From IMG/VR virus record IMGVR_UViG_3300028805_000048: 64,000 bases of DNA; one strand, written 5' to 3'. A program made the translations under genes and the position numbers. The notes beneath the pieces are model-generated. The model worked only from the letters and a program-made list of their open reading frames with translations. It did no database searches and had not been told where the DNA came from. Source of the DNA: a virus (lineage: Duplodnaviria > Caudoviricetes). Within the stretch, counting starts at the first letter, position 1. The number at the start of each line of letters is the position of its first letter. Positions 2,088 to 52,828 of the stretch are shown here, in pieces.

Positions 2088-3122
2088 CTATAATTCACCT
2101 CTTTTTCTTAAAATTAACTCTTTATATGTCAAATCTTCTAATTTAACCTTTTTTAAAGGCTTACCAGTTTTTATTTTTTTAATTTCTTGAGATTGTTTTG
2201 CTATTAAAGAAGATGATAGACCATATCTTTGTTTATATGTAGGTGATAAACTTTTAATAAACTGTAATATTTTTGGACTTACTAAACCAGCTCTATATAA
2301 AAATATTTTTCCAAGTAGTAATGTTTTTTTATCAAAACCAATAGGATCTTGCTTTTCATAAAACTTTTTTATATTATCATATAACTTTACACCATCAGGA
2401 TAATTTTTTGCAATAAGCAAAGCTTTATTTAATATATTATTTATTTCAGTTTGACTTTCTATATAATCTGGAGTATGGTTATTATCAGGAACAACATCAC
2501 CTAAACATTTATCACCTTTTCCATCTTCTAATTTTGAATCTAGAGAAAGTTTAAAAATTGAAGAATTTTCATCTTGCGTTGCTAAAAATGCCTTATGCTT
2601 TCTATCACCAGAAATCGATAATCTGATAATATACAAAAACTCTTTATATAACATTGGATTATATTCAACAGTAGATGCTTTTTTTAACGTTTCTGGAAAA
2701 AACCAACGAGTACGATAAAAATTACAAATTTTTACATATTTTAAATAAAATTCTGCAGCTTGATCTTCATAATTACCGTTAGAATTAGCTAATTTATATC
2801 CATTATATTCTATATATCCTTTTAAATATGAAATTAATGACTTTACACATCTGTCAAATCTTTCAGGATCAGAATTCATAATTGGTTGATGATTTATCAA
2901 ATAATGTGTAACTTCTTCAACTGTCTTAAATTTTTTAAGTTTTTCAATTACTTCTAACAATTCTTCATGTGTTAAACACGTATAAATTAATAAATCTTCA
3001 TCGTTTTTACAAGCGCTTAAAAAGGCTTGAATATCTGTATAACCAGATTCAACAAATTTCTTAAAATTTTGTTTTCTATTAGTTCTTTTTAAAATTTTAG
3101 CTTTTTTAATACCACCAATCAT
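2088..3122 (-). CDS. Divergent phage sigma-factor-like protein
   Basis: SLDSKLEDGKGDKCLGDVVPD resembles sigma70 region 3.2 (SLExPIGDDEDSxLGDFIED); basic, helical; located in the gp46/gp47 neighbourhood as gp55 is in T4. Confidence 0.45.
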   Translation of the reverse strand: MIGGIKKAKILKRTNRKQNFKKFVESGYTDIQAFLSACKNDEDLLIYTCLTHEELLEVIEKLKKFKTVEEVTHYLINHQPIMNSDPERFDRCVKSLISYLKGYIEYNGYKLANSNGNYEDQAAEFYLKYVKICNFYRTRWFFPETLKKASTVEYNPMLYKEFLYIIRLSISGDRKHKAFLATQDENSSIFKLSLDSKLEDGKGDKCLGDVVPDNNHTPDYIESQTEINNILNKALLIAKNYPDGVKLYDNIKKFYEKQDPIGFDKKTLLLGKIFLYRAGLVSPKILQFIKSLSPTYKQRYGLSSSLIAKQSQEIKKIKTGKPLKKVKLEDLTYKELILRKRGEL

Positions 3123-3215
3123 ATATTTGCTTCCTTTTTAAAAAATTAATATATTTATATTAAGTCAAAACTAGTAAAAATTGTAAAATCATTAAAAAAT
3201 TAAATTTCCATATAG

Positions 3216-4967: not shown

Positions 4968-4978
4968 ATAAACCTCTC

Positions 4979-5031
4979 AAGAGCGTGACAGGAAGGAACT
5001 TATCATGCAAACAAAAACCTATCACGCTCTT
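4979..5031 (-). promoter_or_regulatory. RNA hairpin between ssb and HNH genes
   Basis: AAGAGCGTGACAGG (4979-4992)/CCTATCACGCTCTT (5018-5031); the single mismatch becomes G-U on the minus strand; ends directly before the HNH RBS. Confidence 0.65.
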
Positions 5032-5047
5032 AACCAATGATCACTAA

Positions 5048-5920
5048 TTAAAAAGGAACGTCATCCCATCCTTCATTAGCAATCGTTTCAGCAGCAACAT
5101 TGTTTGTAGCAAAACTATTAGTAGTATCTGTAGTTTGTTCAGCCGATTTACTCATAGCATCACGGGCCGCTACATAATTTTTAATCATGTCTTCAGCAAT
5201 TTGATTTACTTCCATAAATTCTTGATCAGAAGGCATCTTCCACAAATCAGGAAGTGTAAGCTGCTCATTTTCTTCTTTAAGTTTTGCAATAACTTCAGGA
5301 GAAGGTCTAAATTCTTTAAAACTAAACTCACGTTCCCATTTACCTGTATCACCAGGACGTGAAAACTTAATTGGATTACTAGATTCAATAGTCGTAAAGT
5401 TAGGAATTTCATTACTAGCATACTTTTGAGCCATCCAAACAGTCATAAAAGAACCATTTTGCTGTAAAACAGAAATGTGTGCTTTATCCCAATCGTTTCT
5501 TTCATCAGACTGAAGAACAACAACCTTAGCATTTGATGAAAATCTAGGATCAAATACAGGATCTGGACCAAATTTACCTTGTGTACATAACTGATCCTCA
5601 GTGAAACCCATCTTCAACAATTTTCTCTTAGCTTCACAAATCGGACATTTAATGCCTTTACCTTTAAGATGCACCGTCTCTTCAGGACATACAAATCTCT
5701 TAAACTGACCGTTACCTAAATCCAGCCAGTGAGTCCCTACAATATGACAAAAAACATTATCTTCTCTTGTATTAGCTGGCATTACTTTAAAAATGATATT
5801 CTTTTTAAAACCATGTTTATAACGAACCCATTCTATATCTGGTAAAGAACCAGAAGAATTATCAGTAGTATCATTTTTGAGCATTTGTTTCATCCATTCT
5901 TCATTAAAAACTTTTTCCAT
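5048..5920 (-). CDS. Single-stranded DNA-binding protein, T4 gp32-like
   Basis: His/Cys zinc ligands (HW...FVCP...CPICE), acidic C-terminal tail ending WDDVPF, recombination-gene context. Confidence 0.8.
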   Translation of the reverse strand: MEKVFNEEWMKQMLKNDTTDNSSGSLPDIEWVRYKHGFKKNIIFKVMPANTREDNVFCHIVGTHWLDLGNGQFKRFVCPEETVHLKGKGIKCPICEAKRKLLKMGFTEDQLCTQGKFGPDPVFDPRFSSNAKVVVLQSDERNDWDKAHISVLQQNGSFMTVWMAQKYASNEIPNFTTIESSNPIKFSRPGDTGKWEREFSFKEFRPSPEVIAKLKEENEQLTLPDLWKMPSDQEFMEVNQIAEDMIKNYVAARDAMSKSAEQTTDTTNSFATNNVAAETIANEGWDDVPF

Positions 5921-5983
5921 GTTAAAATTCCTTTAAAAAAATAAACATTTTATCGAAAACAAGATTTTTTATATCTTGTGTAT

Positions 5984-6028
5984 TATAGAATACAAATAAT
6001 TATTAATTTCTAATCAAAAAAATTTCCA
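5984..6028 (-). promoter_or_regulatory. Putative bipartite promoter TGGAA-N33-TTCTATA (ssb)
   Basis: TTCCA at 6024-6028 and TAGAA at 5986-5990 on plus strand; same spacing recurs at other non-structural genes. Confidence 0.55.
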
Positions 6029-6031
6029 TTT

Positions 6032-7090
6032 CTAATTAACTTTATCCAATAATCTTTTACCTTCTGTTATTAAAGCTTCTTTCTGTTCATCTGTATTTTC
6101 AGATTTATTAACAAATTGTTTAATAACATCAAGATTATTAGTAGTGTTTGATAAATCAGTTTCAATATTTTTAGATATAGAAATTCTATTTATGTCAACG
6201 TGTATATTTTTACCTTTCATTCTATCTATCTTAGCTTTAATTTCATCAGTTAATAGAATGTCTGTTGTAACATTAACATCAATATAATTATTATCATCAA
6301 TCTTCAAAATTTCTTCAATATTATCATCATTAAAACACAACCAATCTGGACATTCAAAACTACGTCTTTCTATTTTATCCATTTTTGTATCATAAATAAG
6401 AATATTTCGACGTGATATTCCTTTATCTTTAAAAGATAACCGTTGTGTAGAACCAGCTATTTGTATTTTATGTCCATAACTTCCACCAGAATGATAATGC
6501 CCTTGTAATGTCATTTTGAATTGATTTAATAAATCTAAAGGAACACCTTTTTGAGTAACTATACCATTACCAAGATTAATTCCACCTAATTCAAGATGTG
6601 AAAAGATAATTTTATTTTGTTTATCTTTTATATTTTCAAGAAATCTTATAGCTTCATCGTCATTAAGACAATAAGGCATATATACACATTCATAATGCAT
6701 ATCTTCACACAAATACTCTATTTCTTCTGGTTTAACATGAAGTTTAATATTAGGTAGATATTTTAATGCTTCTAACTTGTGTATTTGAAGATTGTTATCA
6801 ACTATATCATGATTTCCAAGAATAATGTCAAGAGATATTTTGGCATCGTTAAACTTTTTAAAAAAATCTAACACAGCTTTTAAAGTTTGGGCAGATATAT
6901 TATCGCCAACCGGGCCCCAAATATCACCAAGACAAACTAACTTATCGATATGTTCTTCTTGATATAGTCTTATTAAAGTATCAGCACAAGACAAATGCTC
7001 TAATTCACGAATTGTAAAACCAGAATCAGTAATATGTGAAAATCGATGTGTATGATGAAAATGTATATCACCAAAAGCCATTATTCTCAT
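6032..7090 (-). CDS. Mre11/SbcD-like recombination nuclease (T4 gp47-like)
   Basis: Phosphoesterase motifs GDIH, LGD, GNHD, SH, GHYH; adjacent to Rad50-like gene. Confidence 0.92.
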   Translation of the reverse strand: MRIMAFGDIHFHHTHRFSHITDSGFTIRELEHLSCADTLIRLYQEEHIDKLVCLGDIWGPVGDNISAQTLKAVLDFFKKFNDAKISLDIILGNHDIVDNNLQIHKLEALKYLPNIKLHVKPEEIEYLCEDMHYECVYMPYCLNDDEAIRFLENIKDKQNKIIFSHLELGGINLGNGIVTQKGVPLDLLNQFKMTLQGHYHSGGSYGHKIQIAGSTQRLSFKDKGISRRNILIYDTKMDKIERRSFECPDWLCFNDDNIEEILKIDDNNYIDVNVTTDILLTDEIKAKIDRMKGKNIHVDINRISISKNIETDLSNTTNNLDVIKQFVNKSENTDEQKEALITEGKRLLDKVN

Positions 7091-7091
7091 G

Positions 7092-8957
7092 TTACTTCTC
7101 CTCTATAGTCGTTACACCAAGTGATTTAGTGCATATGATTTTGTTTTGTATACTTTCTTTTACAGCTGGATGATTAGTAATCCAATATACAGATTCAGAT
7201 GTATCACTCTTATCTTCAATGATATTGATAAGTTGTTGTACACCGACAGGATCTAATTCAGATTCTATTTCATCTAACCATAACATATTAAAACTTACTT
7301 GTGATGTTGCTTGAATTAAATCATAAAGACCTAATTGAATAGCGATATTAAGTCGCTTTTTTTCACCACCAGATAAGCTTGTTACTTTTTTCTGAATACC
7401 ATTACTATTTATCAAGATATTGATGTCTGCACCATCCAAACGTAATTCTACATCTGTATTGCTGAAAAATTCGTGGATGTATTTTTGCATACAACTGTTT
7501 AAATATGCTATATCTTGTTTCAATAAATACGGTCTCAGTTCACCTTTTGATCCAAGTAACTTGTAAAAATAATCAGATAACTGCCTTTTGTTTTCAAGCG
7601 ATTTAAGTTGTCGAGCTACTTCGATTTCACCAGTGTCAAGATCAGCTATTTCTTTTTTATAAATAGACATGTCTTGAACCAACTTATCTACCTGGGAAGA
7701 GTGGGACTTCTTTTCAAGTTCCAGCCGAGCTAACTCTTGCGTATTTGCCAGCACTTTACTCTTTAGACTGTTTATCAATGAGTTATTTTCAGTCAATTTA
7801 GTTTTTAATTCTTTTAAAGAACTTTCACTAGCTTGTAATTGACTATTTACTTGTGCCCATTCTTGTCTTTTCTTTAAAAGATCATTATTCAAACCTTTTA
7901 TTTTTTCATCAACAAGAATCATGTCCTTATTAAGTTGATCACGATGGTTTGATTTTTCAGATTTTTCTTGTTCTGTTCTATCTAATAAATGACCACAAGT
8001 AGGACATCTATCGTTTTTAAACCAAGCTTCGATAAGATCAATATCCTTGACTTTCTCTTTCCGTTCGTATTCCGCACTCTGAAGAGTTAGTTTAATATTG
8101 TTAGCCTCATCTACTATCTCATTAAGTCTTTTTTGTAAAGAATTATTTGATGTTTCTTCTAAAGTTTTTGAAAAATTGGTACCGTTTTCTTCATTAACTT
8201 TAATTTCATTGTTACAATTGCTTATTTCGTTTTGTAACGCATCAATTTTAGCATTTATTTTTGCTTCATCGAAAGATTCAACAAGTACTCTATAGTTTTC
8301 CCCCGTAGTATCTAACATCTTTTGATAAGTTGTTTTACTACCATTCATGTTACTTAATTTTAAATTAAGTTCCTGTATTTCCTTGTTGTAAATTTTAATG
8401 TCTTTATTAGCTTCATCACGAACTTTATCCCAAACAGAATAATCACGTATACTTTCTAAAGTTTGTACACGTTGCTGAGGAGTAAGCTCAGAAAAAGCAG
8501 ACTTAATATCATGAGTCATCATAATTGTACTATGGAGCAACTCAAAAGGTATCTTGAATAATTGATTTATACGATTTTGTGTATCAGCAATTTTATGACA
8601 CGTTAAATCTTGTCCACCAATTTCAAGAAAAAGATTATTGCCAAACTCAGAATCTTTTCTAGTACGTGTTATCTTTATATTTCCTTGATCAGAATCAATA
8701 TAAAGAATTACACGACAATTTTTACCTGTTTTGGCATTAACAATATCATCTGCAAGAACTTCATTTGTTAAGGCATTACCAGTTAAACACCAATAAATAC
8801 TTGATAACAAAGAACTTTTTCCAGAACCATTGAAGCTTCCTTTTTCATCATTGTTAATTCCTTCAACAGAATATAAACCTTGTTTAATAGAAAACACAAT
8901 TTTAGATTGTATACTTCTAAAATTTTCAATTTCTATTTGGCGTATATTAAATTGCAT
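7092..8957 (-). CDS. Rad50/SbcC-like SMC ATPase (T4 gp46-like)
   Basis: IENFRS, Walker A NGSGKSS, coiled coil with CPTC zinc hook, LSGGE signature, Walker B LWLDE, H-loop. Confidence 0.95.
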   Translation of the reverse strand: MQFNIRQIEIENFRSIQSKIVFSIKQGLYSVEGINNDEKGSFNGSGKSSLLSSIYWCLTGNALTNEVLADDIVNAKTGKNCRVILYIDSDQGNIKITRTRKDSEFGNNLFLEIGGQDLTCHKIADTQNRINQLFKIPFELLHSTIMMTHDIKSAFSELTPQQRVQTLESIRDYSVWDKVRDEANKDIKIYNKEIQELNLKLSNMNGSKTTYQKMLDTTGENYRVLVESFDEAKINAKIDALQNEISNCNNEIKVNEENGTNFSKTLEETSNNSLQKRLNEIVDEANNIKLTLQSAEYERKEKVKDIDLIEAWFKNDRCPTCGHLLDRTEQEKSEKSNHRDQLNKDMILVDEKIKGLNNDLLKKRQEWAQVNSQLQASESSLKELKTKLTENNSLINSLKSKVLANTQELARLELEKKSHSSQVDKLVQDMSIYKKEIADLDTGEIEVARQLKSLENKRQLSDYFYKLLGSKGELRPYLLKQDIAYLNSCMQKYIHEFFSNTDVELRLDGADINILINSNGIQKKVTSLSGGEKKRLNIAIQLGLYDLIQATSQVSFNMLWLDEIESELDPVGVQQLINIIEDKSDTSESVYWITNHPAVKESIQNKIICTKSLGVTTIEEK

Positions 8958-8989
8958 AAAAAAGACTCCTATATTCAGTAATCACCATA

Positions 8990-9034
8990 TATAGAAGTCC
9001 AATAATGATATATTTCTACGTAATTAAATTTCCA
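8990..9034 (-). promoter_or_regulatory. Putative bipartite promoter TGGAA-N33-TTCTATA (gp46/47)
   Basis: TTCCA 9030-9034 and TAGAA 8992-8996 on plus strand. Confidence 0.55.
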
Positions 9035-9040
9035 AATAGT

Positions 9041-9346
9041 TTAAAAAATTCTTTTAAAAAATGCTTTTAATACATTGAAAATATTACCAAAAAACGATTT
9101 TTTATAAGAAACGCTTAAAAATTCTTCTTCTTTAAAAACGTTATTCACAATTGTCCATTTTTTATTAGCAGAAGATTGAAATTCTCTACCTTCATCTTCA
9201 GCAAATTCATAAATATCAAATTCATAATCATTAAATAATTCTTTAAATTTCTTATTTTTCTTAAGAATATCACGAACTGTCATAATAAAAGTTGTCTTTC
9301 CGACAGCCATTTTACCCTTAACGAAAATATTAATTTTCTTTGTCAT
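9041..9346 (-). CDS. Small protein with P-loop-like motif
   Basis: IFVKGKMAVGKTT near N-terminus; only 101 aa. Confidence 0.55.
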   Translation of the reverse strand: MTKKINIFVKGKMAVGKTTFIMTVRDILKKNKKFKELFNDYEFDIYEFAEDEGREFQSSANKKWTIVNNVFKEEEFLSVSYKKSFFGNIFNVLKAFFKRIF

Positions 9347-9618
9347 TAATTTCTACTCCTTAATTTAAGTTCTGTACATTTATTATTTAATATATCCAAT
9401 AAAGATACAAAAATTTCATCTTGATATTTTTTTAAACAATTTTCACATAAACAAAAAGGTGAATTTTCTATAAAAGAATCTACAAACACAGATTCTAAAC
9501 CAGCTAAAAAAGCTTTATGTAAGAAATTCATAGATCTTGAAGTAACTTGATTTGGCATTTCTTCACCACAAATATTACAACATACTTTATCTACTTCAAT
9601 CACTTTTTTGCAAATCAT
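9346..9618 (-). CDS. Small zinc-finger protein
   Basis: CNIC...CENC pairs; translationally coupled to neighbours. Confidence 0.6.
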   Translation of the reverse strand: MICKKVIEVDKVCCNICGEEMPNQVTSRSMNFLHKAFLAGLESVFVDSFIENSPFCLCENCLKKYQDEIFVSLLDILNNKCTELKLRSRN

Positions 9619-10172
9619 AATTCACCTTTATCAACTTTATCATAAAGTTCATAAGCATTATCAATCAATTTATCAAAGCTAAGAACTCTTTTATCTGGAT
9701 TCTGTTTAAATTTTTTATATTCTTCAACACAATCATTTTCTATAGCCGTCATAAACAATTTATTAAAAATTTGCATATTTTTTTCAGCTTCTTCTTTTTT
9801 ATCAAAAACAACACATATTGTATTTTTGTTTTTATATTTATTACGACTGTGATCTTCATCAACAACAGAAGTATACCAACACCATTGTTCTTTTAATTCT
9901 TTAACAATATCATTTGTAGACATTCCATCAAATGATTTGTTTTTCCAATTTACACGAATTGAACATACTCCATTTGGTTTTATTAAAACATCACGTGTTG
10001 ATGGAATGTAAGGTAAACCATTTAAACAATACATTGAATTATGTATCTTTTTTATCGTTTTATTTATCTTAATTTTCTCTTTTTTAACTAAATCTTTTAA
10101 TTCATTTACTTTTTTATGTAATTTTTTATCTTTTGTAGTTTTTTCATCTAAAACTAATGCCATCAAATTCAT
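9615..10172 (-). CDS. Hypothetical protein
   Basis: 185 aa ORF with GAGGA RBS. Confidence 0.75.
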   Translation of the reverse strand: MNLMALVLDEKTTKDKKLHKKVNELKDLVKKEKIKINKTIKKIHNSMYCLNGLPYIPSTRDVLIKPNGVCSIRVNWKNKSFDGMSTNDIVKELKEQWCWYTSVVDEDHSRNKYKNKNTICVVFDKKEEAEKNMQIFNKLFMTAIENDCVEEYKKFKQNPDKRVLSFDKLIDNAYELYDKVDKGEL

Positions 10173-10189
10173 TTTTAGCTCTTCCTCTT

Positions 10190-11092
10190 TTAAGAATCAT
10201 AATATTTTATTAAATTTATTAAACCACTACAACTTTCACCTTTGTAATTTAAATTTAGATATCTATTTGCTAGACATCGTAATTTAGAATCACAATTTAG
10301 ACAAATTTTATCTCTTAAATTTTCCATTTCCTCAAATTTTTTACGCAAATCCAATAAATTATCAAATTCTAATAATTCAAATTCATTATTTTTTGTAAAA
10401 TTCTGTAAAGCAAACTTATTATTTGGTGTTATATAAACATTTTTTACATTATAATTATCAATCGGTAAAACTTCATCTAATTGTAATTTATTTTGAAAAG
10501 CAAATCTCATTGATTTTGTTAAAAATAAATATTTCTTAATGATTTTTTCTGTTTCTAGATATGATCTTTTAATATTTTTTACGTCTTTACCGTGATGGTA
10601 TGGAATTATTTCCCAAGATTTAATTTTTAACAAATTTAAATCTTCAATAATTCTTTTTTCATTCTTATCACATGAAATATCTAAAGATTTGACATTTATT
10701 GATTTATTATTAAATCTTTTAATATTATCAAAAACTTCTTGTTTATGTTTAGTAAATCCATTAAAATTAAATTTAACATTTATAGCATCAAAACAATTAA
10801 TTAAAGTCTTATTATAATTAACAAAATTTGTAGAAATATATATTTTATTACAATTCAATTTTATTATTTGAAATAACATATTTAAATAAAAATCAGAAGC
10901 TAAAGTTATTTCACCACCACATATTTCTGTTTGAAGAATATTATAATAATTTTTCAAATCAGATAAAGCTGAATCTAACCAAACAACATCTAATTTTGTT
11001 TGATCATATCTTTTATCATTGAAAATATAAAACTCGTCATTTTCTTTCTGTGTATAAAGTGGAATGACATATAATCTAATTTGTTCCTTCAT
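10190..11092 (-). CDS. Degenerate radical-SAM/SPASM-like protein
   Basis: EICGGEITL (GGEP-like), ISTN, VYITPN, C-terminal CLNC...C...C; no CxxxCxxC motif. Confidence 0.55.
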   Translation of the reverse strand: MKEQIRLYVIPLYTQKENDEFYIFNDKRYDQTKLDVVWLDSALSDLKNYYNILQTEICGGEITLASDFYLNMLFQIIKLNCNKIYISTNFVNYNKTLINCFDAINVKFNFNGFTKHKQEVFDNIKRFNNKSINVKSLDISCDKNEKRIIEDLNLLKIKSWEIIPYHHGKDVKNIKRSYLETEKIIKKYLFLTKSMRFAFQNKLQLDEVLPIDNYNVKNVYITPNNKFALQNFTKNNEFELLEFDNLLDLRKKFEEMENLRDKICLNCDSKLRCLANRYLNLNYKGESCSGLINLIKYYDS

Positions 11093-11615
11093 ATTTTGGA
11101 AAATCTTTTATAAATTCATCATAAACATTTGATAAATCTAATAATTCATCTGTTTTTTCTAATAAATCATTATGTTTTGTTAAAATATTTAGATAATGTT
11201 CATGTATTAAATCGCGATATTTTATTATTGATAAAGATTGTTCTTTGTATTTTTTTATTTTTGAATCTTTCCAGCTATAAGCATCTAAAAAAGAATCAAA
11301 ATTTAAAGATTTTACAATATTATCTAATTCATTATGTAAATAATCTAAACAATTTTTAACAAATTGTGTTTTGTTATCATATTTGATAATTTCATTTGGA
11401 TCTTTTGGACATCTTTGCTTTAAATAAAATTTTCCATCATATCCTTTAACGATTTCTTCATTTGTACAATATAAATCTTTATTATACCAGTCTTTGTATC
11501 TGAAATTATTGACATAAAATTTAGCTGTCTCAAAATCAGCTGTCCATTTAATACTTCCGTCTTCTAAATAGACATAAAATTTATTTGAATATTTTGGATC
11601 ACCATTAATTTTCAT
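11076..11615 (-). CDS. Tail-fibre assembly-like protein
   Basis: LDNIVKSLNFDSFLDAYSWKDS..KYKEQSLSIIKYRD resembles phage fibre-assembly chaperones; AGGAG RBS and GTTCTAA motif upstream. Confidence 0.5.
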   Translation of the reverse strand: MKINGDPKYSNKFYVYLEDGSIKWTADFETAKFYVNNFRYKDWYNKDLYCTNEEIVKGYDGKFYLKQRCPKDPNEIIKYDNKTQFVKNCLDYLHNELDNIVKSLNFDSFLDAYSWKDSKIKKYKEQSLSIIKYRDLIHEHYLNILTKHNDLLEKTDELLDLSNVYDEFIKDFPKYEGTN

Positions 11616-11637
11616 TTTTAACTCCTTTTTTGTATAA

Positions 11638-11645
11638 TTAGAACT
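11638..11645 (-). promoter_or_regulatory. Putative late promoter motif AGTTCTAA
   Basis: Recurrent intergenic motif. Confidence 0.55.
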
Positions 11646-11714
11646 GGAAAAATTTTTTTAAAATTATTTTTCTAAAAGAAAAAGGTTGATCAAAAAGAAA
11701 ATTTATTAATTATT

Positions 11715-11780
11715 TTAATAAATTCCCTGCTTTCGCTCGTCGGCTTTGTCGCCGCCGTCGCTCAAGCTGGAATTTATTAA
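11715..11780. repeat. Inverted repeat enclosing a GC-rich island (origin-like element)
   Basis: TTAATAAATTCC (11715-11726)/GGAATTTATTAA (11769-11780) flank CTGCTTTCGCTCGTCGGCTTTGTCGCCGCCGTCGCTCAAGCT within an almost pure A/T intergenic region. Confidence 0.7.
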
Positions 11781-11848
11781 TATATTTTTTATTTTATTAA
11801 TAAATTTAAATTATTAATAAAAATTTCCATTTAATTTAAAGATATAAA

Positions 11849-11892
11849 TGGAAATTTTATAAATTTATTTTTAATATATTTTAGATTCTATA
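11849..11892 (+). promoter_or_regulatory. Putative bipartite promoter TGGAA-N32-TTCTATA
   Basis: TGGAA 11849-11853, TTCTATA 11886-11892, upstream of 11923. Confidence 0.5.
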
Positions 11893-11922
11893 AATAAAAT
11901 TATATAAGAAAGGATTTTTAAA

Positions 11923-12252
11923 ATGAATACAAATTGTATAATTGAACTTAAAGAACATGTCAATAAACTATATAAACAACCAGTGTATACTCTTGATAAA
12001 GATAAAAAATTTTTATGTTTAGGTAATTATGCAAACGTTTTACAGTTTCACAAAAGATTAAAAAATGTTTTAATGTATGGTTACATTAATAATAAAGATT
12101 CAGATATCATTCTTTCACATAACGATGATACATTTTTTATAAAAAATAAAAAACACAATACATTAATTAGCTTACCAAATGAACAAGTAAGATATTTATC
12201 AGCAAATATTGGTAAATTTATATATTCGAAAATGAATGAAAATAAATCTTAA
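11923..12252 (+). CDS. Hypothetical protein
   Basis: 109 aa, AAGGA RBS, own promoter-like motif. Confidence 0.75.
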   Translation: MNTNCIIELKEHVNKLYKQPVYTLDKDKKFLCLGNYANVLQFHKRLKNVLMYGYINNKDSDIILSHNDDTFFIKNKKHNTLISLPNEQVRYLSANIGKFIYSKMNENKS

Positions 12253-15200
12253 ATATCTACTTCATTCAAATCACGAATTTCTATTTTACCTGTATCAAGA
12301 TCTTTAACTTTAACTTTCATTTGAGACATATCGTTTTCATTAACTAATACATCTACAATTCTTTCATTTTTTGTAGATGGCATAGGAGCTTCATCATTCA
12401 TATCTCCTGATCCACCATTTATATTTATATCACCAAAACTTGGTAATCCACCATCCATTCCTGGTTCTTCTGGTCCATAATCATCTAAACCGTCAGAAGC
12501 CATATTATCTTGAGTATCTAAATTTGTCGTAGATGTATCATTTGCTCCTGTTGTAGCAGAAGTCATATCAGAAGCTATATTAGCTGCTCCATCTGCAAAA
12601 TCTGCTGGTGTAGGAGCTTCTGTTAATAATGATAGAAAACATTTATTAAATGATATAGATTCGTTTTGTTGATTTAATAATGGAGTTAAACGCATAGATA
12701 CATAATCTCCAACACCTTCATCATCAAGATATGAAGCTGCTGCATTTGCTGTTTTTGAAATTATATTTTTCTTAATATTGTTTGGTATATTTTTAATTAA
12801 AACTTCATTTTTAATCATATCAATTAAGTTTTTAGTTCCAATAATTTTTCCATTATTAAAAGAATCTATGATACTATCAGCTTTTTTTGATACATTGTTA
12901 ATTTCATTTTGATTAAAATTATCCATAGACTTTTTATTAGCTAATACTTTTTCATGAGCTGCATTATATACTTCATCATTAGTTAACATTTCTCTAATTT
13001 TATTATCTATTGTACGCCATTTGTAAAAAAACGGTATAAAATATGTATCTCTCCATTTTTCGAATTCTATTCGATTTTGAGATGCTGGTTTATTTTTTGT
13101 TCCAGCTTTTGTTTTTACAACAGGTTCATTTGGTGTCAAATTTAAACCAAAGGCATTATTTATTTCATTTATTCTATTTTCAATTGCTGGTCTATCGTTT
13201 TCGTCATATCCAGCAAAAGCATACATGAGGCTTGGATCTTTTTGTAATGCTTCATTACTTGCAAATGGTTCTGTTTGCCATATTGCTATCGTTGATGGTA
13301 ATATTTCACCTGTTTTTTTATTAAATAGTTTAGGAGCATCTTTTTGACCACGCCACATATCACCAGCTCTACTATCTATAACACCTTTATAATGTGCTTC
13401 TAAATCTTCTCTTGCTTGTTGGCGTTGTTCTGACGTCATATTAGCTATAGAATCACCTTCTTTAATAGCACCTATTTCTGTATTGTTTTTCAAATCATAT
13501 ACTTTATTTTTATTTGCTACATAACCAATTGGTCTATTATTATCATCTAATACAATTCTTCTGTATACATTTTGACTTGTAAATGTAGAATCTATTCCTC
13601 TTGTTGGATCTTTATATGTGCCAATACCAGTATCTTTATCAAATGAAAATCCACTATTTCCATCTTGCTCATATTCAGCTATTGTTTTTCCAATTTTTCC
13701 AAGATAATTACCATGTAAATCGACTACTTCAGCAGAATCTTTATCATTTTTACGAATTATTCCATAATTTTTACCCTTTAAACGAAGAGATTCTTCTAAA
13801 CTTTCTTCTTTCTTTTTATTTCCAAGATATTGAACAGCAGAACCTAATCCGGCACAACTAACACCACACTCATTCATATCAAGACCAGTAATCGGTTTTA
13901 AAGGAAATGGAAGTTTTTTAACAGAATATAATTCTTGTAATTCATTCATAGCATCTTCACGAGATGTAAATTTAGCAGCTGTTTCTAAATTATCAGAAAT
14001 TAAATTTTCATCACGCCAATTTGAATTTAAATAATAATTTTTATTAACATCATCTATTTGATATTCAAGATACCAAATTTCATTATCAGTTATTTGATTA
14101 TTTTCGATTGATTCTTTTTTCATAGCAGAAAAATCTTTACCTTTATTTAAATCATTCCAAACCATTTTTTGAGCAAAATCTTTATTTGCATCATTCACAT
14201 CTGGATTTTTTTCATAATGTATATCATTCCATTTGCGTGCAGCTTTTTCTTGCTCCCAACCCATACCTCTGGCATTTGGATTCATTCTAGACATATATTC
14301 TTCTTTGTGCTTTTGTATATCTTCTGGAGTCCATGATTCTCTATCTCCAAGTCTATTCCATCTGTGTTTTAAAATTGGACCCCATTTAGTATTAGCATAT
14401 CTAGCTTTAGTTCTTAAAGCAATATTGTCATCTACATCATTTGTTATTTCCGGAACATCTAATTTTTCTATTTTATCTTCTGTTACGTCATCGTCCCATA
14501 TTTGTTCTTCTTTAGGAATAGAATAATCTGCTTCAGGTATTTCTATTTCAAAATAATTAGGATCCCAAGAACCAGGTTCAGCATTATATTTTTTATAAAT
14601 ATCAAGAATTTTTTGTTTATTATCTTCTATTTGCTTTTTGATTTGTTCTAAATCATCATTGTTTTCTGGTTTTTCTACATTTGATAAAATTTTATCTACA
14701 TATAATTGATTTAAATTATCACTTATAGCTTTCAATTCTTCATTGTAATGAAGAATTTTATCATTTATAGGTTTATTTAAATTGTCTGTTATTTCTTTAT
14801 CGATTATAGGTGTTATATTTTTTTTACTATCTTTATATTGCGTACCAAGATGACCAATTATATCATTATCATTTTCGCTGCTTAAAATGAAATAATCAGT
14901 TTTAAGATATCGCATATTATTATTATTATTTATATTATCAATTTTTTTATTATTAAAATCGAATACCGTATTATTATCCTTTGTATAACCTATACACTTG
15001 TTACCAACAAATACAGGATTCATATCATGTGCTATCTTACCTATAGGATGTTCATCTTTGAAATAGACATCTTTTTTTCTTTCTTTTTCATCTTTACTAT
15101 TTAAAGCTTTTTGCCATTTATCACTATCGAAATGAATAGGATAAACAAAATCATTTTCAATGACATAATCCATGATTTTATCTTTTTCTAAACTTTCTAA

Positions 15201-16247
15201 TGAATTTGATAATTTTTCATAAGTATTTATCAATTCATTAGTCTGTTCATCAGAAAAAATCTGTTTAAAATTTTTTATATCTGGTATTTTTGTATCTTTT
15301 TCATATCTTAAGTTTGATAAATATTTTTCAATTTTATCTTTTGTATCTAATAAACGTTTTATTTCAATTTTAATATTTTCATATTCGCTTTCTATTACAG
15401 CTTTTTCAATTTCTTCTTTATCACTTAATTCTTTATTTTTAAACTTTTCAAGTTTTTCTAATGTTTCTAATTTTTTTTGTGGTAATTCTTTTTCAAGAAA
15501 TTGTATACGTGATAATATTTGATGATATTCATTCATCATTTCACTTAAATTATCTTGTGCTACTTTAGTTATTTTATTCTTATCCAAAAATCTTTTTTCT
15601 TCTTCACTTGGTTCTCTTTTAAATTTTTCTGAACGATTATAAAAAAATTGATTTCTATCATTCAACTCTTGTTGAAGTTTTTCATTTTGATCAGTTAAGT
15701 CTTTGATTTCTTTCCAACCAGGAGTACGATTTATATTTTCTTCAGTTATTACTGATTCGTGTAAAACAATTCCTTTTGGTAAAGGATAATTATTTTTCTT
15801 TAACCAATCGTGTAATTCTGCAACCGATTTAAAAATTTCTATTTTACCATCATGTGAAAGACAAAGATTTTCATTTTGTTTAAAAATACGAGCATTTTTA
15901 CTTCTTAAAATTGCCGTATTGTCTTCTTCGTTTACTTTCCAATCATTTGTATCGATGTCATCGTTTATTTTTTTAATACGATTTAAGATAGATTGTAATT
16001 CATCAGAAACTTTAAGAGATTGTTTTATTTTATCCATGACTTCATTTGTCAATTCTCTTTTTTCTTCTTCTTTGTCAGTATCAAGTTCTTCACGATTTGT
16101 ATAAAATTTTGATCCAGGATTAGAAGGATCGAATGAATTGTCTTGATTTGCAACAGAAACAAATCTTTCTTCTTCATCTTCTTTTAAATACATATTATTT
16201 AATGTTTCATCTATGAGTTTGAGAGAATTTTCAAAAATATTTGTCAT
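12249..16247 (-). CDS. Large putative head-packaged (internal) protein
   Basis: 1332 aa, acidic/coiled segments punctuated by IFEN, LKE, LHES, ITEE, KKES, MNE, EESLEES, QNES, LTEA motifs like T4 gp21 cleavage sites; downstream of a late motif. Confidence 0.55.
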   Translation of the reverse strand: MTNIFENSLKLIDETLNNMYLKEDEEERFVSVANQDNSFDPSNPGSKFYTNREELDTDKEEEKRELTNEVMDKIKQSLKVSDELQSILNRIKKINDDIDTNDWKVNEEDNTAILRSKNARIFKQNENLCLSHDGKIEIFKSVAELHDWLKKNNYPLPKGIVLHESVITEENINRTPGWKEIKDLTDQNEKLQQELNDRNQFFYNRSEKFKREPSEEEKRFLDKNKITKVAQDNLSEMMNEYHQILSRIQFLEKELPQKKLETLEKLEKFKNKELSDKEEIEKAVIESEYENIKIEIKRLLDTKDKIEKYLSNLRYEKDTKIPDIKNFKQIFSDEQTNELINTYEKLSNSLESLEKDKIMDYVIENDFVYPIHFDSDKWQKALNSKDEKERKKDVYFKDEHPIGKIAHDMNPVFVGNKCIGYTKDNNTVFDFNNKKIDNINNNNNMRYLKTDYFILSSENDNDIIGHLGTQYKDSKKNITPIIDKEITDNLNKPINDKILHYNEELKAISDNLNQLYVDKILSNVEKPENNDDLEQIKKQIEDNKQKILDIYKKYNAEPGSWDPNYFEIEIPEADYSIPKEEQIWDDDVTEDKIEKLDVPEITNDVDDNIALRTKARYANTKWGPILKHRWNRLGDRESWTPEDIQKHKEEYMSRMNPNARGMGWEQEKAARKWNDIHYEKNPDVNDANKDFAQKMVWNDLNKGKDFSAMKKESIENNQITDNEIWYLEYQIDDVNKNYYLNSNWRDENLISDNLETAAKFTSREDAMNELQELYSVKKLPFPLKPITGLDMNECGVSCAGLGSAVQYLGNKKKEESLEESLRLKGKNYGIIRKNDKDSAEVVDLHGNYLGKIGKTIAEYEQDGNSGFSFDKDTGIGTYKDPTRGIDSTFTSQNVYRRIVLDDNNRPIGYVANKNKVYDLKNNTEIGAIKEGDSIANMTSEQRQQAREDLEAHYKGVIDSRAGDMWRGQKDAPKLFNKKTGEILPSTIAIWQTEPFASNEALQKDPSLMYAFAGYDENDRPAIENRINEINNAFGLNLTPNEPVVKTKAGTKNKPASQNRIEFEKWRDTYFIPFFYKWRTIDNKIREMLTNDEVYNAAHEKVLANKKSMDNFNQNEINNVSKKADSIIDSFNNGKIIGTKNLIDMIKNEVLIKNIPNNIKKNIISKTANAAASYLDDEGVGDYVSMRLTPLLNQQNESISFNKCFLSLLTEAPTPADFADGAANIASDMTSATTGANDTSTTNLDTQDNMASDGLDDYGPEEPGMDGGLPSFGDININGGSGDMNDEAPMPSTKNERIVDVLVNENDMSQMKVKVKDLDTGKIEIRDLNEVDI

Positions 16248-16294
16248 GGAATTAACTTCTCTTTCTAAATAGTTAATAGTATTATTTTTAATGA

Positions 16295-16912
16295 TTAGTA
16301 GTTATCTCTTAATCTTTGAATATAATCTAAAAATGGTTCATTTTCAGATGTTTTAAGATTTGAATCTTGCCACATTTGATACCAGTCAGGTTTATCTTCT
16401 GTTTCAGCTCCAAAATCATCTTGGTAAAGCATATCAGCGTTAGGATTATCTTCATAATTTGGTCTAGATACAGCCTCTGCAAATGGATCTTCACCGTTCA
16501 TCAACGCTTCTACATCATATTTGTTAAACTTGTTACCATACTTATCTGTATAAATACCATTTTCATCTTTAACAAAATGATGTTCACTAGCAAAAGCTTC
16601 AATTTCATCGTTTGTTTGATTTTTATATTGATCAGCTATAGGAGATTCATATTCATTATTATAAGCTGTGAATTCTCCGTTAGCTTGTGCACCTTCCCAA
16701 TTCATAGCATCATCTGTTGGTATCGTAGATGCATTTGCTCCACCCGCCATCAAACCACCAGCGACAGCAGCCGTAGCAAGACCTTTTTTGATATTGTCTT
16801 TCCATCCTTCTTCAAGGTTTTCAGAATTAAATGATTCTTTGAATAATTTATTTTCACTATTTTCATAAATAGCTTTTAACATATTTGATTTAAAGCTTTG
16901 TTGATTTTCCAT
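16295..16912 (-). CDS. Putative head-packaged protein with internal signal-peptide-like helix
   Basis: IYEN..FKES..LEE followed by GWKDNIKKGLATAAVAGGLMAGGANA. Confidence 0.55.
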   Translation of the reverse strand: MENQQSFKSNMLKAIYENSENKLFKESFNSENLEEGWKDNIKKGLATAAVAGGLMAGGANASTIPTDDAMNWEGAQANGEFTAYNNEYESPIADQYKNQTNDEIEAFASEHHFVKDENGIYTDKYGNKFNKYDVEALMNGEDPFAEAVSRPNYEDNPNADMLYQDDFGAETEDKPDWYQMWQDSNLKTSENEPFLDYIQRLRDNY

Positions 16913-16948
16913 AATTTATATTCCAGATCTGGTTAAAACGTTTATAAA

Positions 16949-16955
16949 TTAGAAC
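16949..16955 (-). promoter_or_regulatory. Putative late promoter motif GTTCTAA
   Basis: Recurrent intergenic motif. Confidence 0.55.
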
Positions 16956-16970
16956 ATTTTTATTTGGAAA

Positions 16971-17015
16971 TGGAAATATTTTATAAAATATTAAGCCTAT
17001 CATTGTAGTTCAATA
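16971..17015 (+). promoter_or_regulatory. Putative bipartite promoter TGGAA-N33-TTCAATA (clpP)
   Basis: TGGAA 16971-16975, TTCAATA 17009-17015 (one mismatch, same spacing). Confidence 0.45.
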
Positions 17016-17046
17016 GAACATCATTTTTATAATTACAAAAAGGAGA

Positions 17047-17796
17047 ATGATTTTTATGTGGTCTGGTAATAGCGATAGTATTTTACAACAAGTACCAAGA
17101 AATTATATGTTTGGTGATAAAATTTTCATTTATGATACAATCACTAGTGAAAACTGTGCTCATTTGATAGGTGATTTATCTACATATGTATTGAATTATG
17201 AAAATGCTGGTAGAAAATTGTCATTTTTTATAAATTCTCCAGGTGGTGAAGTATCAGTAATGATGAATATTATTGGTATAATGAATATGGCAAAGTTAAA
17301 TGATATTTCAATTGATACTTATGTTCTTGGTCATGCTGCTTCAGCTGCTTCTTTAATTGCTGTCAATGGAACTTGTCGTATAATGAGTAAGTTAGCAAGA
17401 CATCATCTTCATTTTGGAACAATTTTTGATGTTACAACCAAACAAAGTGAAATTGAAAAAACTTATATTCAAAACATAGAGTATTCTGAAAATATAAAGA
17501 ATATATATTTAGAATGTTGTCAAGGTAAATTATCAAGAGAAATTTTAGATAAATTAGAAGAAGATGAAAGAGGTCTTTTGAATGCTAAACAGTGCTTAAA
17601 GTATGGTTTATGTGACATTATCGTTGAAGATGCCTTAAGTGATAAAATGAAAGATGAAAATTCCAGATCGTTATTTGAAGAACAATATAGAAAGCATTTA
17701 AAAGAAGAAGAAAAGAAAAGACGTGAACAATCAAAGAAAGAAAAGCCGAAGAAAAAATCTAGAAAATCATTAAAAAAGGATGAAAATCATGAATAG
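17047..17796 (+). CDS. clpP: ClpP-like protease subunit (start possibly at 17056)
   Basis: FINSPGGEV, AASAAS (catalytic Ser), HHLH, YGLCD; Lys-rich C-terminal tail. Confidence 0.88.
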   Translation: MIFMWSGNSDSILQQVPRNYMFGDKIFIYDTITSENCAHLIGDLSTYVLNYENAGRKLSFFINSPGGEVSVMMNIIGIMNMAKLNDISIDTYVLGHAASAASLIAVNGTCRIMSKLARHHLHFGTIFDVTTKQSEIEKTYIQNIEYSENIKNIYLECCQGKLSREILDKLEEDERGLLNAKQCLKYGLCDIIVEDALSDKMKDENSRSLFEEQYRKHLKEEEKKRREQSKKEKPKKKSRKSLKKDENHE

Positions 17797-19285
17797 AAGT
17801 GCTATTATTGAATATTTTAATACTTTATGTGGAACTTGTAATAAAAAGTTATCAAGATCTGAATATCGCATGTTAAATCCTGAATATCCATCATCTTTAA
17901 TTGAAAAGCTTTGGGGTAATTGGAATAATTTCATGGATGAAGTAAATGATACAGTTATCATGACTCGTACTAGTCTGAAGAAGAAATTTAATAAAAAAGC
18001 TGATAAAATAGTTATTTCATATGTTAACGATGGAACAGATATTAATTTAGATTTTTTTAAAACATTAAAACTATACTGTAAGAATAATCATGCTGAGTTA
18101 GGTATACTGTGGGGTAAAGGAATAAAAAAGAATGTTACTTTTAGTAGAGATACTTTTGATTTATTGTCAGAATATCTTGCTACAGAATTTACATTTGAAA
18201 AAGATGATAAATGTATCGCTAAAGATTTTATGTTACCTCTAAGTCAAAAAAATCCACTTTTAAATATAGATAAATTATCAACAAATATAAACACTGTAAT
18301 AGTTGGATCAAATAAACAATATTTGAAGATTCTTCCATATAAACAATATCACGATTATAGAATAGCTTGCTCTACAGGTGGTTTATCCGAAATAGAATAC
18401 GGTGATACAATATCAAATTGTATTGATGAAAAATATCATACTTTTGGAGCTATTTTATTAGAATGGAGTAAAGATAAAAATAGATATATTATTAGAAATC
18501 TTATTTTTAAAAACGGTTGTATTCATGATTTAAACAAAATATATTATAATAATAAGATAACTACCAAAAAGAGTCTTCCTGGTATGGTATTAGGTGATTT
18601 GCATTTACCTGATGAAGATGAAAAGGCACTTTCTATAACTGAAGAATTTATAAATAAATACAAACCAGAAGCAGTAATGTTACATGATATAGCTTCTTGG
18701 AATAGTGTATGTCATCATAATTTTGGTAAATGTCTAACACAAGTTATTAATATGGATGAAATAAATACTACACTAGAAACAGAATTAAATGATGTTTTGA
18801 TAAGATTACGTGTGTTTGCAAAAATGTGTCCAGATAGTAATTTCTATGTAGTTAATTCGAATCATGATAATTTTATTGAAAAATGGTTAGAAACTGGTGA
18901 ATTTTTAAAGGATAAAAGAAATGCTAAGATTGGAGCTAAATTATTCTTAGATTATTCACAAGGAAAAAACATTTTTGACGGCAAATTACCAGAAAATATG
19001 AAATTTTTACCAAAGAATAAAAGTTTTGAGATTTGCGGATTTGAATTATCTGAACATGGTGATTGCGGTATATCCGGTGCAGGTGGAAGTGCTAATGCTT
19101 TCAATAAAACTTTTGAAAATTGTATAGTTGGACATACACATTCACCAGAAATTAGAGAAAAAACATTTTATGTTGGTACTTTATCAAAACTAATCGTTAA
19201 TTATAATCAAAAAGGTATGACAACTTGGGTAAACGCCAATGCTGTTGTTCATGAAAACGGTACAGCTCAACTTATTTTAATATAA
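17780..19285 (+). CDS. Calcineurin-like metallophosphoesterase with long N-terminal extension
   Basis: LGDLH, LHD, SNHD, EHGD, GHTHS motifs in the C-terminal half. Confidence 0.85.
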   Translation: MKIMNRSAIIEYFNTLCGTCNKKLSRSEYRMLNPEYPSSLIEKLWGNWNNFMDEVNDTVIMTRTSLKKKFNKKADKIVISYVNDGTDINLDFFKTLKLYCKNNHAELGILWGKGIKKNVTFSRDTFDLLSEYLATEFTFEKDDKCIAKDFMLPLSQKNPLLNIDKLSTNINTVIVGSNKQYLKILPYKQYHDYRIACSTGGLSEIEYGDTISNCIDEKYHTFGAILLEWSKDKNRYIIRNLIFKNGCIHDLNKIYYNNKITTKKSLPGMVLGDLHLPDEDEKALSITEEFINKYKPEAVMLHDIASWNSVCHHNFGKCLTQVINMDEINTTLETELNDVLIRLRVFAKMCPDSNFYVVNSNHDNFIEKWLETGEFLKDKRNAKIGAKLFLDYSQGKNIFDGKLPENMKFLPKNKSFEICGFELSEHGDCGISGAGGSANAFNKTFENCIVGHTHSPEIREKTFYVGTLSKLIVNYNQKGMTTWVNANAVVHENGTAQLILI

Positions 19286-19286
19286 T

Positions 19287-19331
19287 TGGAACATTTTTTG
19301 AATTTTTTATAGTAATATTATGGATTCTATA
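19287..19331 (+). promoter_or_regulatory. Putative bipartite promoter TGGAA-N33-TTCTATA (grx-groES-groEL unit)
   Basis: TGGAA 19287-19291, TTCTATA 19325-19331. Confidence 0.55.
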
Positions 19332-19371
19332 AATATAATTTGTAAAATCGTTAGATTTTTGTGAGGTAATT

Positions 19372-19587
19372 ATGGCAAAATCTGTAAAGAGTGTTAAAAA
19401 GACGCAAAAAACGACTAAATCTGTTAAAAATGTCAAAAAAAGCATCAAAAACAATGATTTAGAACAAGAAATTGACGAAAAATTAGATCAAAATGTTAAA
19501 AATGAAGAACAAGTTGATCAAAAAGATAATAAAAGTAAAAAGAAAAGTAATCTTTTTGCTAGTATGAAAGATATAATCTGGTTTTAA
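19372..19587 (+). CDS. Small Lys-rich low-complexity protein
   Basis: KSVK repeats, GAGG RBS. Confidence 0.65.
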   Translation: MAKSVKSVKKTQKTTKSVKNVKKSIKNNDLEQEIDEKLDQNVKNEEQVDQKDNKSKKKSNLFASMKDIIWF

Positions 19588-19605
19588 GAAAGGATTTTTA
19601 TAAAA

Positions 19606-19824
19606 ATGAAGCTGTTAACGATGAGTAGTTGTATTCCATGTAAAATGGTTAAACAATATTTTGCTGAAAATGATATAAAAGCTGAAATCTTAGATGTCAC
19701 AGAACATGAAGATTTAGTCGAACAATATAATATCAAACAAACACCGTCTCTAATTTTAGATGATGGTACAATTTTAGCTGGTAAAGATGATATAATTGAT
19801 CATTTTGAAGAAGAGGAGGAATAA
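19606..19824 (+). CDS. Glutaredoxin/NrdH-like redoxin
   Basis: CIPC motif, QTP cis-Pro segment, 72 aa. Confidence 0.85.
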   Translation: MKLLTMSSCIPCKMVKQYFAENDIKAEILDVTEHEDLVEQYNIKQTPSLILDDGTILAGKDDIIDHFEEEEE

Positions 19825-19825
19825 A

Positions 19826-21867: not shown

Positions 21868-21919
21868 ATAATCTATGGAAGAATTTATGACGTGGTTTGA
21901 AAAACAATAGTCACATTTT

Positions 21920-21928
21920 AAGTTCTAA
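21920..21928 (+). promoter_or_regulatory. Putative late promoter motif AAGTTCTAA
   Basis: Recurrent intergenic motif; heads the portal-containing block. Confidence 0.6.
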
Positions 21929-21955
21929 ATAAAAACGCGTTTAGAGTTAAATTTA

Positions 21956-28668: not shown

Positions 28669-28771
28669 AAAATAAACTCCTTTTTCATAACTATATATAG
28701 AATCTAAATAATCTATATTTGTAAAGCTATTATTTTAAAATGAATAATAAAAAACTTCCATTTACATAAAG

Positions 28772-52769: not shown

Positions 52770-52828
52770 ATTTTTTTAGTCTAGAATAACTAATTTTAAA
52801 TTCATTGTTCTTCCTCATAAAAAAGTAA

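Follow-up and report, generated by a model that had tools for sequence, protein, structure and literature searches.

The 64,000-nt stretch of DNA analyzed here as a whole and called the window (28% GC; IMG/VR virus record IMGVR_UViG_3300028805_000048, Duplodnaviria; Caudoviricetes) belongs to a very divergent myophage with T4-type portal, baseplate hub and tail tube proteins and with strong Shine-Dalgarno sites. Within this window, genes for SbcCD-like recombination proteins, a ClpP-like protein and GroES- and GroEL-like chaperones are preceded by a two-box signal, TGGAA-N32/33-TTCTAT, which is the subject of this study and is referred to below as the M-class. Exact matches to this signal occur four times in the window (6028-, 9034-, 11849+ and 19287+), against a mean of 0.17 in the 100 dinucleotide shuffles that served as the chance level, none of which reached four. 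A fifth site, at 16971+, has TTCAAT in place of TTCTAT at a distance of 38 bp. All five sites are intergenic and oriented towards the downstream gene, the start of which lies 37-70 nt away. The five sites had been listed in a preliminary description of this DNA with start-to-start distances of 38, 38, 38, 38 (with TTCAATA) and 37 bp, and all were present at these positions and spacings. The same is true for two loci at which only one half had been seen, namely a box without TTCTAT at 3210(-) and a core without TGGAA at 38 bp at 28702(-).

Table 1. M-class promoters, related sites and the candidate specificity factor in the window. Spacings are start-to-start distances in bp.
Feature	Positions	Strand	Elements and spacing	Downstream genes
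M-class promoter 1	5985..6028	-	TGGAA 6028-6024; optional TAGAA 6012; TTCTAT 5990-5985; spacing 38; 5' hairpin after promoter	290-residue protein of no assigned function (5048-5920)
M-class promoter 2	8991..9034	-	TGGAA 9034; GTAGAA 9019; TTCTAT 8996-8991; spacing 38	SbcC-like (7092-8957), SbcD-like (6032-7090)
M-class promoter 3	11849..11891	+	TGGAA 11849; TTCTAT 11886; spacing 37	109-residue protein (11923-12252)
M-class promoter 4	16971..17014	+	TGGAA 16971; core GTTCAAT (TTCAAT 17009); spacing 38	ClpP-like (17047-17796), T5 A1-like phosphoesterase (17780-19285)
M-class promoter 5	19287..19330	+	TGGAA 19287; TTCTAT 19325; spacing 38	gene 19372-19587, thioredoxin-like (19606-19824), GroES-like (19796-20146), GroEL-like (20146-21792)
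Hybrid promoter	28697..28760	-	TGGAAG 28760, 58 bp before core TTCTAT 28702-28697; no TGGAA at 38; early-type GCTTTACA begins 28727, exactly N17 before TTCTAT	two 73-residue proteins (28447-28668, 28223-28444)
TGGAAAT box with early-type core	3176..3210	-	box 3210, 23 bp before TTTACA -35 element 3187-3182 and ~46-48 bp before the -10 element	candidate sigma-like factor
Late-type core AAGTTCTAAAT with box	21876..21929	+	G at 21922; TGGAAG 47 bp upstream; one of the two late cores of 64 with a phased box	gene 21956-23110
Candidate sigma-like specificity factor, 344 residues	2088..3122	-	weak sigma-region-2 signals	

The SbcC-like protein led to a related IMG/VR contig, UViG_3300028888_000051 (227,383 bp, 95% complete; G001 in the following), which is syntenic with the window at 70-77% DNA identity. 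All five window promoters have orthologues in G001 in which both boxes and their spacing are retained while the spacer sequence has diverged; the orthologue of promoter 5 lies at 159490(-), and the TTCAAT variant of promoter 4 is also present in its orthologue. The 344-residue protein listed in Table 1 led to nine further IMG/VR loci with 49-80% protein identity. When the distances between TGGAA and TTCTAT were plotted for G001, a peak was observed at 37-38 bp, where slightly relaxed words gave 13 pairs against about 1 per bin. In the pooled 446 kb of the window, G001 and eight of the loci, 22 pairs had a distance of 37-38 bp, compared with about 0.7 in each bin elsewhere. The preliminary description had staked its proposal on the spacing being conserved elsewhere, and this search in the relatives found that it is. 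First-order Markov simulations gave a mean of 1.0 for G001 (observed, 7) and of 0.5 for the eight loci (observed, 11). For single genes, the motif was found in front of the 290-residue gene in 9 of the 10 related phages, and in front of sbcC in 6 of the 10. When only the box was used as an anchor (WTGGAAAWW, strictly non-coding), TTC[TA]A[TA] was recovered at 36-38 bp in 18 of 26 boxes, which shows that the association of the box with TTC does not depend on the mode of search. The class is real, conserved and clade-wide, with a defined grammar. It stands before replication, recombination and chaperone genes, as first noted for the window, and its motif and spacing exceed the chance level in the window, G001 and eight further phages.

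The clade itself, which consists of uncultured rumen phages that are distantly T4-like, is abundant in ruminant gut metagenomes and several of its members are of jumbo size (200-260 kb). In a sheep-gut metatranscriptome run, 52% of the sampled words of window positions 10001-20000 were present. Among the INPHARED phages, megablast with window positions 5000-20000 and tblastn with the 344-residue protein both gave no match, and no description of the two-box motif turned up in literature searches. In one related phage, L028 (IMGVR_UViG_3300031992_000024), the two-box signal was not found upstream of the orthologue of sbcC or of the 290-residue gene, and the sbcC orthologue has TCTTTAC upstream, which resembles an early -35 element. 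This suggests a turnover of promoter classes within the clade.

The genes located behind the class in G001 encode a dUTPase-like protein, a 779-residue AAA+ ATPase, thymidylate synthase, a DnaB-like helicase, RecA and SbcCD, as well as a UvsW-like helicase (at a spacing of 58 bp), ClpP together with the A1-like protein, and a thioredoxin-like protein together with GroES and GroEL. Two other types of promoter accompany other genes. Early-type promoters of the form GG[CT]TTTAC[AT]-N16/17-TATAWT are clustered before arrays of small genes, and a late element, AGTTCTA(A/T) (in the form AGTTCTAA), precedes structural genes in about 60 copies. As the preliminary description had pointed out, the core of the M-class shares TTCTA with this late motif. 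T4 is the textbook example of how a phage takes over the host RNA polymerase: its early transcription is followed by MotA-dependent middle and gp55-dependent late transcription. The genes here are divided by function among the three promoter classes in the way that T4 divides its own among early, middle and late transcription. To judge from the sequences, the two-box signal is most likely a third, activator-dependent promoter class beside the early and late ones. The promoter grammar separates the gene classes well in the window and in G001, and it should help to assign genes across this uncultured clade.

The information content of the collected sites is concentrated in AAW-TGGAAA-WTT and TTCTATA, and the spacer between them is unconserved, A/T-rich DNA. 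The distal box reads AAWTGGAAAWTT, with its T at 37-38 bp before the core. The box is orientation-specific, the reverse word TTCCA giving no distance peak, and its GG was invariant among the sites collected, in genomes of 27-28% GC. Several other identities for the signal were considered and rejected. If TGGAA were a -35 element, a -10 element would be expected 17 bp downstream, where there is no conserved hexamer. The sigma-54 -24/-12 promoter, the consensus sequences of Bacillus alternative sigma factors and the CodY and cre boxes did not fit in words or in spacing.

The box and the late-type G are almost never found at the same core. A phased TGGAA was found at 2 of the 64 non-coding GTTCTA[AT] cores of the window and G001, as compared with 18 of the 50 gene-proximal cores that lack the G, and the approximately 60 late cores showed no upstream element of any kind. 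Where a middle core does have a preceding G, it reads TTCAAT, and this is kept in orthologues. An optional third element, GTAGAA, precedes the core by 22-23 bp in 13 cases, compared with 0.75 per bin, and this is the start-to-start geometry of a -35 and a -10 element. This element remains fixed to the core where TGGAA is about 10 or 20 bp farther away, as in front of sbcC of the related phage L023, at G001 position 224407 and before the UvsW-like gene of G001, and it also occurs without TGGAA (sbcC of L027; G001 position 52794). The optional GTAGAA, the exclusion of the late-type G and the box variants displaced by +10 and +21 bp go beyond what the preliminary description had noted.

The displaced variants give TGGAA secondary spacings of 47-48 and 57-60 bp, with nearly nothing between them; for example, in the sbcC promoter of L023 the TGGAA lies 47 bp upstream of the core instead of 37-38. 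With a stringent non-coding filter, distances of 36-39 bp accounted for 13 pairs, that of 47 bp for 2 and those of 58-59 bp for 5, and the remainder of the range from 10 to 60 bp contained 3 pairs. A site upstream of -35 that recurs in steps of about 10.5 bp is the hallmark of class-I activation, and such recurrence was observed here on small counts. These steps suggest that the box depends on a particular face of the helix. Furthermore, the box is not tied to the TTCTAT core. In four phages, including G001, L022 and L023, it lies 23-24 bp upstream of the TTTACA -35 element in the early-type promoter that serves the gene for the 344-residue protein, and hence about 46-48 bp ahead of the -10 element, in phase with the 47-bp class. 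Because the box is also used with an early-type core, it would seem to touch the core of the polymerase and not any single sigma factor.

Two other explanations bear on these properties of the box. In one, TGGAAAWTT would be an UP-like element that is bound directly by the C-terminal domain of the host alpha subunit, with no phage activator, and that makes strong promoters without a -35 element. Both its location at about -50 to -40 and its A/T-rich flanks (AAW...AWTT) resemble UP elements, and helical phasing is typical of contacts made by this alpha domain. However, UP elements are A/T tracts that are not known to contain a conserved G, whereas the box contains two invariant G residues in a genome of low GC content and is strictly oriented; it is, moreover, confined to one functional gene class and excluded from the late promoters. 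We regard this explanation as very unlikely. In the other, TGGAA and TTCTA would be the arms of an imperfect inverted repeat (TGGAA versus the complement TAGAA), an operator at which a dimeric phage repressor shuts the middle genes off late in infection. The near-dyad relation of the two boxes, and the perfect TAGAA-N32-TTCTA palindromes in G001, L022 and L025, are what such an operator would give. Yet the arms would lie 3.5 helical turns apart on opposite helix faces, the box occurs alone with other core types and at the +10 and +21 bp positions, and most of the cores have no other upstream promoter element, so that activation is needed. An operator therefore seems extremely improbable to us.

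The position of the core can be compared with that of known -10 elements. TTCTAT lies 25-76 nt before start codons (34-76 nt at the sites that have a TGGAA box). In two hybrids of the form TTTAC[AT]-N17-TTCTAT, at window 28702(-) and G001 20756(-), TTCTAT occupies precisely the place of the -10 element of an early-type promoter. In front of the 290-residue gene, a 5' hairpin (window ~5955-5978(-)) begins 5-8 nt after TTCTAT. Orthologues of this hairpin are present in L022, L023, L025-L027, L029 and L030, and its stems (CAAGAT/ATCTTG, GACAG/CTGTC, GAGAG/CTCTT) differ between phages. A hairpin with phage-specific stems that begins so close to the core fits with a transcript start just after it, and it probably is a 5'-terminal stabiliser or a regulatory stem-loop.

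The preliminary description had pointed to the product of 2088..3122 as a sigma-like factor that might read TTCTA. This 344-residue protein has more than 128 metagenome homologues, on contigs of up to 263 kb. Its AlphaFold model (predicted local distance difference test, pLDDT, 79) is all-helical, with two folded halves and a low-confidence linker at residues 184-217. With Foldseek against the PDB, the best matches were nearly all sigma-A chains (E 0.15-1). An all-against-all structural search (VIA) aligned 72 residues within positions 80-183 with SigR at Z 6.2 and a root-mean-square deviation of 3.0, followed by SigH, CnrH, SigE, SigB, BldN, sigma-28 and RpoS, with many ECF sigma factors among these next matches, and at least 15 of the top 50 matches were sigma factors. 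The nearest named ESM Atlas cluster carries Sigma70_r2 (score 0.93). Residues F135, Y136, R139, W140 and F141, which lie in a long helix, are invariant in the family, a set that is reminiscent of the aromatic region 2.3 of sigma factors. When modelled alone (pLDDT 78), the C-terminal domain gave a best Z of 4.8, with DnaA domain IV at Z 3.9-4.4 and sigma-32 region 4 at Z 3.5. The region-2 signals are weak and recur in structure and embedding comparisons, whereas every sequence test failed (Pfam, PHROG gp55 and hhalign against gp55). A profile search of 1.8 billion representatives returned a narrow family that nothing linked to cellular sigma factors, and the profile of the family gave chance matches only against PDB sequences. 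In these searches the protein has no sequence relatives among known sigma factors, and we estimate the chances that it is sigma-like to be about one half.

Other trans-acting candidates were looked for in G001. Sigma70_r2 (PF04542) was absent, the PHROG gp55 families phrog_234 and phrog_12791 had no match, and neither had the MotA and AsiA profiles PF09114, PF09158 and PF09010 at E <= 10. The preliminary description had likened the putative activator to MotA, and this comparison found no support in G001. Searches with phmmer for T4 gp55, gp45, gp44, gp62, RegA, RpbA, gp43 and gp46 in all open reading frames of G001 and the window gave a weak AAA+ match for gp44 only. In so divergent a clade, in which phmmer did not recover T4 gp43 and gp46 either, the absence of MotA, AsiA, gp55 and Sigma70_r2 is weak evidence. 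No convincing DxDGD motif of the giant virion RNA polymerase type was found in large proteins without an assigned function. The gene upstream of that for the 344-residue protein (3216-3662(-)) encodes a 148-residue protein for which ESM Atlas gave a weak lead to UvsY (score 0.81, in a cluster of which only 42% carries this family), and which is probably a recombination mediator and not a transcription factor.

The reading that we tentatively favour, at somewhat less than an even chance, is that the M-class sites are phage middle-class promoters, a reading that has four steps. First, TTCTAT(A) would be a -10-type element, to judge from its position 17 bp after -35-like elements, from its distance of 25-76 nt to start codons and from the conserved 5' hairpin that starts 5-8 nt behind it. 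Second, one phage-directed form of the host RNA polymerase would read both TTCTAT and the late AGTTCTA(A/T), its reader probably being the divergent sigma-like protein of 344 residues. Third, the middle cores, lacking the late 'AG' extension, would be weak on their own and would depend on upstream contacts, namely the optional -35-like GTAGAA at 22-23 bp and the distal box AAWTGGAAAWTT at 37-38 bp, near -50. Fourth, the box would be bound by a putative sequence-specific protein, most likely a phage early product, which, from one helix face, would contact a polymerase part that every holoenzyme shares, for instance the C-terminal domain of alpha. A single TTCTA reader with interchangeable auxiliary contacts is suggested by the shared TTCTA, by the mutual exclusion of the late 'AG' and the upstream elements and by the -35-like GTAGAA; a separate box protein that activates in the class-I manner is suggested by the phased positions, the fixed orientation and the use of the box with an early-type core. 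The preliminary description had proposed TGGAA as the site of an activator or of a distal contact, and this idea fits a box that is separable, orientation-specific, phased (on small counts) and found before an early-type core; its location near -50 differs from the -30 of MotA. If this four-step reading is true, replication, recombination and chaperone genes would fire before the late-gene switch and independently of it.

Several observations weigh against this reading. The phased variants come from few cases, 2-4 for the spacing of 47-48 bp and 5-8 for that of 57-60 bp. For the proposed reader, Z-scores of up to 6.2 are in a range that is common for helical proteins, the Foldseek E-values are 0.15 or worse, and all fold signals are below the level at which the tools are reliable; the C-terminal domain has no clear fold match. 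Pfam at E 5 gave no match for nine members of the family, distant ones included, so that the Sigma70_r2 region was not detected, and hhalign of the family against a gp55 alignment gave a probability of 0.1. Finally, the core contains TATAAT, TATAAA or TATATA, which is no worse than the -10 elements of the early promoters themselves, and for this reason the host sigma factor could read the core.

The last point leads to the main rival explanation, in which the host primary-sigma holoenzyme reads a TATAAT-like hexamer within TTCTATAAT and a phage activator at TGGAAA replaces the -35 contact. This would be the logic of MotA in a class-I geometry (about -50), with TTC serving as an accessory contact or present by accident, through an ancestor shared with the late motif. 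Most sites indeed read TATAWW at positions 3-8 of the core (inside TTCTATAWW; the host sigma-70 -10 element used in T4 middle promoters is TAnnnT at -12), the early promoters tolerate similar -10 variants, the box is also paired with an early-type core, and the gene set matches the middle genes of T4. On the other hand, the T at position 6 of the hexamer is found in only about a third of the sites, and the GTTCAAT variants have no TATAAT-like hexamer in register. Moreover, anchoring on the box alone recovers TTC, which is the heart of the late element, and the strict avoidance of the late-type G is left unexplained. We consider this explanation rather unlikely; it is the strongest rival of the four-step reading.

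In a further alternative, no separate box protein is involved and a single sigma-like polypeptide reads both boxes. Its region-2-like domain would recognize TTCTAT, and its C-terminal helical domain, tethered by a linker of about 35 residues, would recognize T(G/A)GAAA either at -35 (GTAGAA) or further upstream (TGGAAA). In the general form of this alternative, a large clade of rumen phages would possess a new sigma-like factor, orphan in sequence, that reads all TTCTA promoters with interchangeable parts: 'AG' would make a promoter late, and it would be middle if the tethered C-terminal domain of the factor itself read GTAGAA at -35 or TGGAAA near -50, -60 or -70. The upstream elements are near-identical words (TGGAAA and TAGAAA), the model consists of two folded halves with a low-confidence linker, and the C-terminal half has weak matches to DNA-binding helix-turn-helix domains, among them the DnaA and sigma-32 domains mentioned above. 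All these C-terminal matches are, however, in the noise (Z below 5). Region 4 of known sigma factors is fixed on the beta flap, out of reach of -50, the box also precedes an early-type core that is presumably read by the host sigma, and the +10 and +21 bp variants fit better with a separate protein. We judge this alternative to be quite improbable, in the general form as well. If one factor did read both boxes, it would be a sigma factor whose second DNA-reading domain works far upstream of -35.

Returning to the reading of the sites as middle-class promoters with a separate box protein, a close counterpart is the middle class of T4. Both are a third class between early and late, both precede genes for replication, recombination and nucleotide metabolism, both belong to myophages with T4-type portal and baseplate genes, and both combine the lack of a host -35 element with a phage-specific upstream box. 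They differ in that the T4 MotA box, (a/t)(a/t)(a/t)TGCTTtA, is centred at about -30 while TGGAAA lies near -50 (also about -60 and -70), in that the core here shares TTCTA with the late promoter while T4 has a plain sigma-70 -10 element, and in that searches of the 95%-complete G001 yielded no homologue of MotA or AsiA. Many of the more distant T4-like phages are not known to encode these two proteins. The late promoters of T4, which are read with gp55, consist of one -10-like element, TATAAATA, and the late class here, AGTTCTA[AT], is also of a single element. It has another sequence, searches for a gp55 homologue (phrog_234, phrog_12791, hhalign) gave none, and the middle core of this phage is a variant of its own late core, with upstream elements that T4 late promoters do not have.

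Class-I activator-dependent promoters are known from other phages, such as the late promoters of P2 and P4 that depend on Ogr and Delta (site near -55), those of Mu that depend on Mor and C, and that of phi29 that depends on p4. Like the M-class, they have a sequence-specific site upstream of -35, apparently on one helix face, and a poor or absent -35 element. Their sites are dyad-symmetric and have known activators, whereas the box described here is asymmetric and strictly oriented. The mutual exclusion of the bases beside the core and the upstream elements resembles the 'mix and match' of sigma-70 promoters, in which the extended -10, -35 and UP elements substitute for one another: AG takes the place here that TGn has in sigma-70 promoters. 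The words are different, presumably the reader as well, and the distal element is located beyond the -35 position. As for the UP element, its position and flanks are compatible with the box, while the invariant GG and the fixed orientation set the box apart. Four promoter elements are named in one published abstract (PMC2613000).

The class appears to work like an activator-dependent phage middle promoter and seems not to belong to the T4 MotA system. The clade appears to have a three-tier programme that is equivalent to that of T4 and built from different parts, with another late element and with a middle class in which the late core is reused together with a distal box that is apparently helix-phased.

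A number of further features were observed in the vicinity of the M-class promoters. Promoter 3 lies in a very AT-rich divergent intergenic region of 307 bp (11616-11922). At ~11820-11861, this region contains two inverted TGGAAAT boxes (starting at 11829 on the minus strand and at 11849 on the plus strand), of which only the right-hand copy has TTCTAT at the canonical distance. A GC-rich island at ~11735-11800 within the same region folds, at -38.2 kcal/mol for RNA (z -7.8 relative to shuffles), into a long, imperfect hairpin and is a candidate for a terminator acting in both directions, a small RNA or an origin-like element; a search of the window against Rfam matched no family, this hairpin included. 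Behind promoter 4, the ClpP-like gene overlaps the homologue of the T5 A1 'DNA transfer' metallophosphoesterase (phrog_1745, E 6e-73; 17047-19285 for both), and the two form one middle-class operon, a pairing that is unusual.

A free-standing HNH endonuclease gene (4143-4967) is followed by an unusually GC-rich 80-bp spacer with an inverted repeat (window 4143-5047 in total), and at the equivalent place G001 carries another GC-rich hairpin. The arrangement resembles the insertion of a mobile endonuclease between the 290-residue gene and recombination genes. A match within a gene, TGGAAA-N32-TTCTAA at 10284-10326(-), is located in the coding open reading frame 10190-11092, in the part that encodes a Cys-rich segment of a 300-residue protein. 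It is also present in G001, L022, L023 and L030, which could reflect conservation of the protein alone or an internal promoter.

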